A DNA stretch of 38,400 nucleotides, from positions 1 to 38,400 of the forward strand of contig JANNXD010000062.1 of the NCBI GenBank assembly GCA_031409375.1, read 5' to 3'. Shown one piece after another: positions 18,732 to 19,714 of this stretch. Position 1 is the stretch's first letter. Every line of letters begins with the position of its first letter. Origin of the DNA: Gammaproteobacteria bacterium. Lineage in GTDB: Bacteria; Pseudomonadota; Gammaproteobacteria; Pseudomonadales; JANQJO01. The notes under the pieces were generated by a model, which was not told the DNA's origin, searched no databases, and saw nothing but the letters and a program-made list of their open reading frames with translations. The translations under genes and the position numbers were made by a program.

Positions 18732-19714
18732 TCAATATCCCCGATTATCATCTTCACGGAGTACACCTTGCAATTCATTAGCCATATCCACTAAAGCATG
18801 TGGGTTACTGTGATTGATAGGCTCTGTCATTCCAAAATCGCTTGTCAGTTGCGTCAAGTGAATTGCACCTTGTAAATACCACGCGACAAGCCGATAGCTT
18901 TCGGCCACACTGGCGTATAAATGTAATCGCTCATCAAATGCCTGGCGGGTAACTGAAGAAGCCTTGGCTAATACAGCCCCTCGGAGTTCTGCGCTCATAC
19001 TGGATTTATCTTTTTCGATAAACTTGTCAATCTGGTTTTTTAATATTCTCATCGCCATTCGCGCCCCCACGGAGAGAGCCAAATGTTTTGCCCCTCTGTA
19101 AAACTGACTGAGGGCACCATTAGCCCCATTCCGATAAATCATGCGATGTTTCTGCAAAATCCCGGTCACATTATCAAGAACTTCTTGGATAATTTTTTGC
19201 GTGCCCACTGCAATATTTTCACCCTTTGACTCAAGTGTTGCAGCATCCTCTAATTGACTAAAATTCTCCAATAATTGCTCGATTTTTAAGATAGCTTTTG
19301 GAAGCTTCTCTTCTGCTTTATCAAAATTCAAATATCTACTGAAATCGACAGAATCAAAATCATTTGGTCCTGCCTCCTCTGTAAAATCATCAACACGCTC
19401 TAATATTTTTCCTTTATATTTTCGAATTTTTAAAAGCTTATCCGCAGAATTTAAACCATTAAAACGCTGCAATAAAACCAACAGTTTTTTCCGGTTACAT
19501 GAAGTTCTGAAAAATTAATGGGGACCTGACATAGCCTATGTTTAGCTTCAGGATCAGATGCATCTACCAATGTGTCGTTATTCGATTCGAAGTTATCTGA
19601 CGGCTTTAAAAATGCGCCCCACTGATGTTTTAACTGAATATAGCTCTGCTTAATTTCTGAGATTATTTCCCGAGAACTCTGAGCCTCCACCGCGTCAGCA
19701 ACAACTTCACGCAT
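18732..19714 (-). pseudogene. Hypothetical protein gene split by a frameshift at a T6/A6 homopolymer (possible pseudogene, phase-variable gene or sequencing error)
   Basis: Two overlapping minus-strand ORFs (19451..19714 and 18732..19481). The downstream ORF has no ATG and reads straight out of the upstream ORF's sequence. Inserting one A in the GGAAAAAACTG run (plus-strand T6 at ~19485-19490) fuses them into one ~327-aa ORF. Local GC is noticeably lower than in flanking genes. Confidence 0.5.

Follow-up and report, generated by a model that had tools for sequence, protein, structure and literature searches.

Two overlapping reading frames on the minus strand of the window (the whole 38,400-nucleotide stretch of DNA analyzed here) are best explained as one gene of a rare orphan family, probably inactivated by a real and recent loss of a single base from a run of adenines. 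The allele would then be a young pseudogene or off allele. The earlier note on this DNA had proposed as its core claim that the two frames are one gene broken at the A-run, and an intact relative, continuous and collinear across the junction, now bears this out.

The first frame (ORF1) carries the N-terminal 77 codons of the ancestral gene followed by 10 out-of-frame codons, and the second (ORF2) carries its C-terminal three quarters (Table 1). They overlap by 31 nt, with ORF2 in the −1/+2 frame relative to ORF1. The coordinates and frames agree with the earlier description of a 249-aa frame lacking an ATG and shifted by +2/−1 against an overlapping 87-aa frame. Addition of one A to the A6 run opened a 327-codon frame fusing ORF1 with ORF2, and this A7 reconstruction gave the uninterrupted product of ~327 aa that had been predicted, with ..VTGKKLLVLLQR.. 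as the junction-spanning peptide. Read in ORF1 codons the site is GGA AAA AAC, that is A_AAA_AAC; in ORF2 codons it is AAA AAA CTG (Lys-Lys-Leu). The ORF2 frame has no stop in 249 codons, whereas the two alternative frames over this stretch contain 16 and 26, indicating that ORF2 is a genuine coding sequence rather than a chance ORF. No ATG lies near the ORF2 start. A GGA sits 8 nt before TTG 19481, and Shine-Dalgarno (SD) complementarity for the TTG starts reaches 3 nt at best. No recognizable SD was found before the ORF1 ATG.

Table 1. Features discussed in the text (positions in the window unless a locus is named)
Feature	Position	Strand	Remarks
ORF1	19714..19451	minus	ATG start; 87 aa; TAA stop at 19453..19451
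ORF2	19481..18732	minus	TTG start; 249 aa; TGA stop at 18734..18732
A6 run, the frameshift site	19490..19485	minus	T6 on the plus strand; context GGAAAAAACTG at 19492..19482
Untranslatable remnant of a 48-codon N-terminal extension	19872..19715	minus	158 nt; homologous to the extension of both relatives
Upstream neighbor, 1472-aa SNF2-family helicase	20042..24460	minus	Pfam SNF2-rel_dom and Helicase_C; context, outside the unit
Downstream neighbor, 74-aa DUF2798 protein	18387..18611	minus	Pfam PF11391; context
Third family member	L085 10001..11135 (also L086, L087)		P0010 (247 aa) and P0009 (142 aa), adjoining and overlapping

The earlier note had suggested comparing the fused 327-aa translation with protein databases. 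Of the 5.8 billion 90%-identity clusters, this search returned just two: the protein's own C-terminal piece and P0002, which is continuous across the break. P0002 (368 aa, 56% identity, 98% coverage) aligns collinearly, first with ORF1 and then with ORF2. Residues 1–76 of ORF1 align with P0002 residues 49–124, and ORF2 aligns with residues 124–367 at 58% identity, gapless and in the −1 frame. In tblastn the P0002 homology changes frame exactly at the A-run, and the best-conserved N-terminal block, CQVPINFSEL..KK.LVLLQRFNGL, spans the junction. At the aligned position the P0002 gene reads ATA AAA AAA ATA, an in-frame A8, where the window has GGA AAA AA- CTG. Lys-Lys at this site is common to the ORF2 frame of the window and to P0002; the third family member has Glu-Lys. 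The collinearity of P0002 across the junction, together with its A8, strongly supports an ancestral gene that would have been a single ORF with the A-run coding Lys-Lys, so that the window is one A short (A7 to A6). An A8 at the same spot in P0002 also indicates that the homopolymer was inherited, making it an expected indel hotspot. The opposite case raised in the earlier note, relatives with two separate conserved ORFs, does not hold.

On this reading of a single-base loss, 19714..18732 (minus strand) would be one gene encoding ~327 aa from a methionine kept in all three family members; the full proteins in the two relatives have 368–377 aa. Slipped-strand loss of one A would have turned A7 into A6 within the run coding Lys-Lys. 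Ribosomes starting at ATG 19714 would enter the wrong frame after Gly-Lys and meet a stop 10 codons on, giving an 87-aa fragment and leaving the other 249 codons essentially untranslated. Full-length protein could form only through rare spontaneous −1 slippage on A_AAA_AAC, or through weak TTG initiation without a good ribosome-binding site; a trace of it via slippage is plausible. The off allele would revert at ordinary mutation rates only, without a programmed switch. We infer both that the mutation ran from A7 to A6 and that the gene lost its function.

The age of the break was estimated from constraint on either side of it. With the third member as outgroup, a relative-rate test counted 29 lineage-specific amino-acid changes for the window and 31 for P0002 (p = 0.90); split at the break, the counts were 6 versus 7 before it and 23 versus 24 after it. 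The dN/dS ratio against P0002 was 0.17 for ORF1 and 0.24 for ORF2 (range 0.17–0.33 across both sides), with dS to P0002 at least 1.25 and saturated. A stop would be created by 5.1% of the possible substitutions in ORF2, and the probability that ORF2 stays open falls to 0.32 at 3% and 0.15 at 5% neutral divergence. The lack of rate acceleration and of stops in ORF2 indicates that the frameshift is recent: it would account for no more than a few percent of the time elapsed since divergence from P0002, or else the gene would still be in use. Further lesions are known only upstream of the ORF1 ATG (19872..19715), in a stretch that is perhaps non-coding, and the 327-codon core has neither stop nor acceleration. 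The option of a fresh pseudogene, one of several in the earlier note, therefore fits best, as rate acceleration, further stops and recoding signals were all absent. Two counterpoints apply. A wholly intact 249-codon remainder is equally expected if the gene is still used, and frame breaks at homopolymers that arose independently in two members may point to a more systematic cause than chance.

The locus resembles other homopolymer frameshift pseudogenes in having lost one base from an A-run, with a collinear relative and fragments that overlap out of frame. It differs in belonging to an orphan family of three loci and in a remainder whose constraint is not measurably relaxed, which again argues for a very recent event. 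Out-of-frame A-runs in otherwise conserved genes are also a feature of insect endosymbionts, in which poly(A)-tract frameshifts of ~9–10 A or longer are reportedly rescued by transcriptional slippage. The window differs from these in having six A, and it lacks a wider pattern of such lesions.

The family comprises three loci among ~15 billion proteins. A profile HMMER search of 1.84 billion representatives added only the L085-type pair to the window copy and P0002, and no further members were found in word-indexed searches, GTDB species genomes or JGI metagenome contigs. Viral contigs, plasmids and phages held no homologs (plasmids and phages by tblastn). P0010 and P0009 are the two halves of the third member, which is 47% identical to the window protein; its contigs from JGI, ENA/NCBI and Logan are identical in sequence. 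The third member is split at a G9 run (L085 10688..10696), a different site from the A6 of the window, and G8 would restore ..EAGGGDISVGTQKIIQE... At the position of the window's A-run it reads GAA AAA GGA, in frame. The G9 is followed by AGA, and GGG_AGA is a conceivable +1 slippage context.

All three loci are mutually non-syntenic. The family gene has 40–41% GC against 45–47% for its loci, ~5 points lower in each. In the window, the fused coding sequence (A7 reconstruction) has 40.5% GC compared to 44.7% overall, and the 19001–19500 bin is the lowest of the window (36.8%); the local GC drop pointed out in the earlier note is thus real yet modest. Horizontally acquired, effector-like cargo, also proposed there, would be loosely consistent with this lower GC and with the patchy, non-syntenic distribution. 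The prediction of helical segments without a recognizable domain held up as well. The best Pfam match (E = 0.047) fell below its cut-off, NCBIfam gave none, and the best match among PDB sequences (E = 0.0047) contained no qualifying stretch. An AlphaFold (AF2) model from a four-row alignment was all-helical, with a pLDDT of 35.7 that makes it unusable for fold search. The fused protein is hydrophilic and acidic to neutral (pI 6.2), with no transmembrane segment (maximum KD19 0.92), and is predicted to be soluble and all-helical.

Among 80 fetched loci with related SNF2 genes, none had the orphan gene downstream. The first ~1000 residues of the neighboring SNF2 helicase have no Pfam match. Its best relatives among 185,579 GTDB species genomes (Chromatiaceae, Methylococcales and others) share 36–51% identity, and most align only from residue ~250–550 onwards. 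Given identities of only 36–51%, the source organism seems to have no close species representative. Elsewhere in the window, a four-gene cluster at 3283..7652 (minus strand) encodes a 638-aa protein with a weak kinase-domain match, a PP2C phosphatase, a VWA-domain protein and a Ser/Thr kinase, resembling the vWA-PP2C-kinase 'TerY-P' triad. The order at 26763..31679 is alaS, aspartokinase, csrA (seen in the Logan contig L084), tRNA-Ser(GCT) and tRNA-Arg(ACG), with an alaS-csrA-tRNA arrangement that we take to be typical of Gammaproteobacteria and that gives the strongest hint of taxonomic placement. Two further frames matched no Pfam family: a 493-aa ORF at 11478..12959, minus strand (E ≤ 1e-3), and a 186-aa ORF at 31931..32491, plus strand (E ≤ 1e-4).

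Phase variation was another option of the earlier note. The homopolymer would be a reversible slipped-strand switch in a contingency gene, and the sampled population would be in the off phase. This is unlikely, although several observations point towards it: the P0002 homopolymer lies at the same codon pair and is in frame, the third member loses its frame at a G9 that has no other G/C run of at least six beside it in the 18-kb locus, while the 38.4 kb of the window contain none at all, and two of the three members are off at homopolymers with intact downstream frames. Against it, runs of this kind are commonplace in the window (31 A6 and 29 T6 runs, plus 36 longer A/T runs, or 96 A/T runs of at least six in total), so that the A6 run by itself is unremarkable. 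High switching rates are generally known from tracts of roughly at least 8 for G/C and at least 9 for A/T, and A6 is well below these lengths. Every assembly was also at the off length in a comparison of consensus assemblies from few samples: the window and both Logan runs had A6, and the three L085-type loci had G9. Exact look-up among ~15 billion proteins found no in-frame product (A7 for the window; G8 or G11 for the L085 type), and similarity searches found no such in-frame alleles either. For an A6 run, the phase-variation proposal is weak.

Simple-sequence contingency loci, such as those in Neisseria, Haemophilus and Campylobacter that vary phase through poly-G/C or poly-A/T tracts, share with this family a homopolymer within coding sequence whose length sets the frame, and the G9 of the third member is typical of them. 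The window differs in its A6 tract, which is not over-represented and shows no length polymorphism among the available assemblies. Extended to the family, the same idea would make all three members contingency genes of uncultured gammaproteobacteria-like organisms, toggled or leaky at homopolymers. The A-run site (A6 out of frame, A8 in frame) and the G9/GGG_AGA context, whose +1 frame corresponds to the downstream ORF, may both belong to such a scheme, which we hold to be quite unlikely. If it were true, the intact downstream frames would reflect continued use and not recent loss.

Decay over a longer period was considered in view of the stretch upstream of the ORF1 ATG, into which the homology extends, a point that the earlier note had overlooked. 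P0002 and P0010 start 48–49 codons upstream of the methionine (MR..) common to all three members. In both relatives this extension is an open frame with aligned ATGs and codon-position identities of 0.46/0.46/0.27, and in L001 a GGAGAG lies nine bases before the extension ATG; the extension thus looks to be coding in the relatives. The corresponding window stretch aligns with L001 at the nucleotide level (z = 7.4; equalled by 0 of 500 shuffles), and the tblastn alignment reads through its TGA stop. Its lesions are an ATG changed to ATT (19872..19870), a frame-breaking net gain of 14 nt, and the TGA at 19771..19769, which aligns with a Cys codon in both relatives. Selenocysteine at this TGA was rejected, as the same stretch has no start codon and contains a frame break; a plain nonsense change is most likely. 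The remnant also contains a short GC-containing hairpin at 19749..19762 (GAGTCTCCCGACTC) followed by a T-rich tail, 35 nt before the ORF1 ATG. It appeared terminator-like in a consensus scan yet was no commoner than in shuffles, and the promoter and terminator scan gave nothing above chance.

These lesions, together with the ORF1 ATG lacking a recognizable SD, could indicate an older pseudogene in which the whole locus and its extension are decaying and A6 is one of at least four lesions. This is decidedly improbable. The 327-codon core shows neither rate acceleration nor a stop, and three of the four lesions lie in the first 14% of the length, a crowding with a probability of ~0.01 under uniform decay (binomial estimate). 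Such crowding suggests that the extension was abandoned earlier, with the internal methionine serving as start and the core kept until recently. The remnant accordingly has two readings: it suggests a lineage that dropped the extension and came to start at the conserved internal Met, or all three loci may carry it as a non-coding leader, which also counts against an older pseudogene. With either, the 327-codon core would be what the lineage maintained.

Programmed −1 ribosomal frameshifting, or transcriptional slippage, at A_AAA_AAC would make the 87-aa product and a 327-aa fusion the normal expression of the locus. The heptamer is exactly in the X_XXY_YYZ phase of ORF1, with ORF2 as the −1 frame and devoid of both an ATG and a good ribosome-binding site. 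However, this phase follows automatically from deletion of one A of GGA AAA AAA and is not independent evidence. No stimulatory RNA structure was apparent: the 105 nt beyond the site and a 111-nt segment spanning it folded at −12.1 and −12.9 kcal/mol, weaker than shuffled sequences (z = +1.55 and +1.49), with no hairpin or pseudoknot downstream. No SD-like element was found upstream of the site, in CTTCATGTAACC, and Rfam gave no match at E ≤ 1 for the site and upstream region. The shift is also absent from both relatives, P0002 and the third member being in frame here. A run as short as A6 is not known to support efficient transcriptional slippage. The same heptamer, in the right phase and before a −1 ORF without an ATG, is found in IS1 insA-insB' (A6C), which we take to be the insertion sequence (IS) cluster in which A_AAA_AAC frameshifting is proven. 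The site studied here differs from IS1 and from the A_AAA_AAG sites of dnaX and the IS3 family in that it has no stimulatory structure or SD-like element, is not conserved in the relatives and does not belong to a transposase gene. In that IS cluster a stimulator has not been established (Sharma et al. 2014, PMC4066793), and E. coli heptamers without stimulators reach only 2–10 times the ~0.055% background (PMC4066793). At most, low-level adventitious slippage is expected at the window site. The in-phase heptamer being the one feature in its favor, with structure, SD, Rfam match and conservation all missing, the programmed frameshift offered by the earlier note is very unlikely.

A sequencing or assembly error, in which the true allele is A7 and the gene intact, was the last of the earlier options. 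Indel errors classically occur in homopolymers, and the frame is restored by one added base. Against this, two Logan assemblies, both possibly built from reads shared with the window's own assembly and compared at consensus level, match the window base for base with A6 included: SRR20217191 over 2091 nt and SRR20217180 over a 4264-nt stretch of an 8683-nt contig, each at 100% identity. The exact 87-aa and 249/246-aa products are already recorded from NCBI and Logan assemblies of two different runs. A run of six A is short for a consensus-level mistake. The other scanned genes of the window gave near-full-length Pfam matches (AlaRS, aspartokinase, ETF-QO, SNF2, CheB, HDOD and PurM/PurN among them), indicating no sign of systematic homopolymer error; none was split, and overlaps elsewhere in the ORF list reflect over-extended starts. 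With identical A6 in two other read sets, an error is highly improbable.

A functional split gene, its 87-aa and 249-aa pieces made separately with ORF2 re-initiated from TTG 19481 or 19472, would suit two intact pieces of unrelaxed constraint and the GGA before the first TTG, and is nevertheless scarcely credible, as the break interrupts the most conserved block and a predicted helix (residues 68–86, low-confidence model), the starts are TTG only with at most 3 nt of SD, and no relative has this arrangement at the window's site.

Recent single-base loss thus remains the preferred reading. The event itself is ordinary, apart from the breakage of two of the three known family members at homopolymers. 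For annotation, the 87-aa and 249-aa hypothetical proteins call for merging into a single gene marked as frameshifted, and likewise the 247-aa and 142-aa pair of the third member. The locus offers a clean example of a gene giving way at an inherited homopolymer that codes for Lys-Lys. Should reads show length heterogeneity at the run, the family would instead be a phase-variable one in environmental bacteria, where to our knowledge few such families have been documented.
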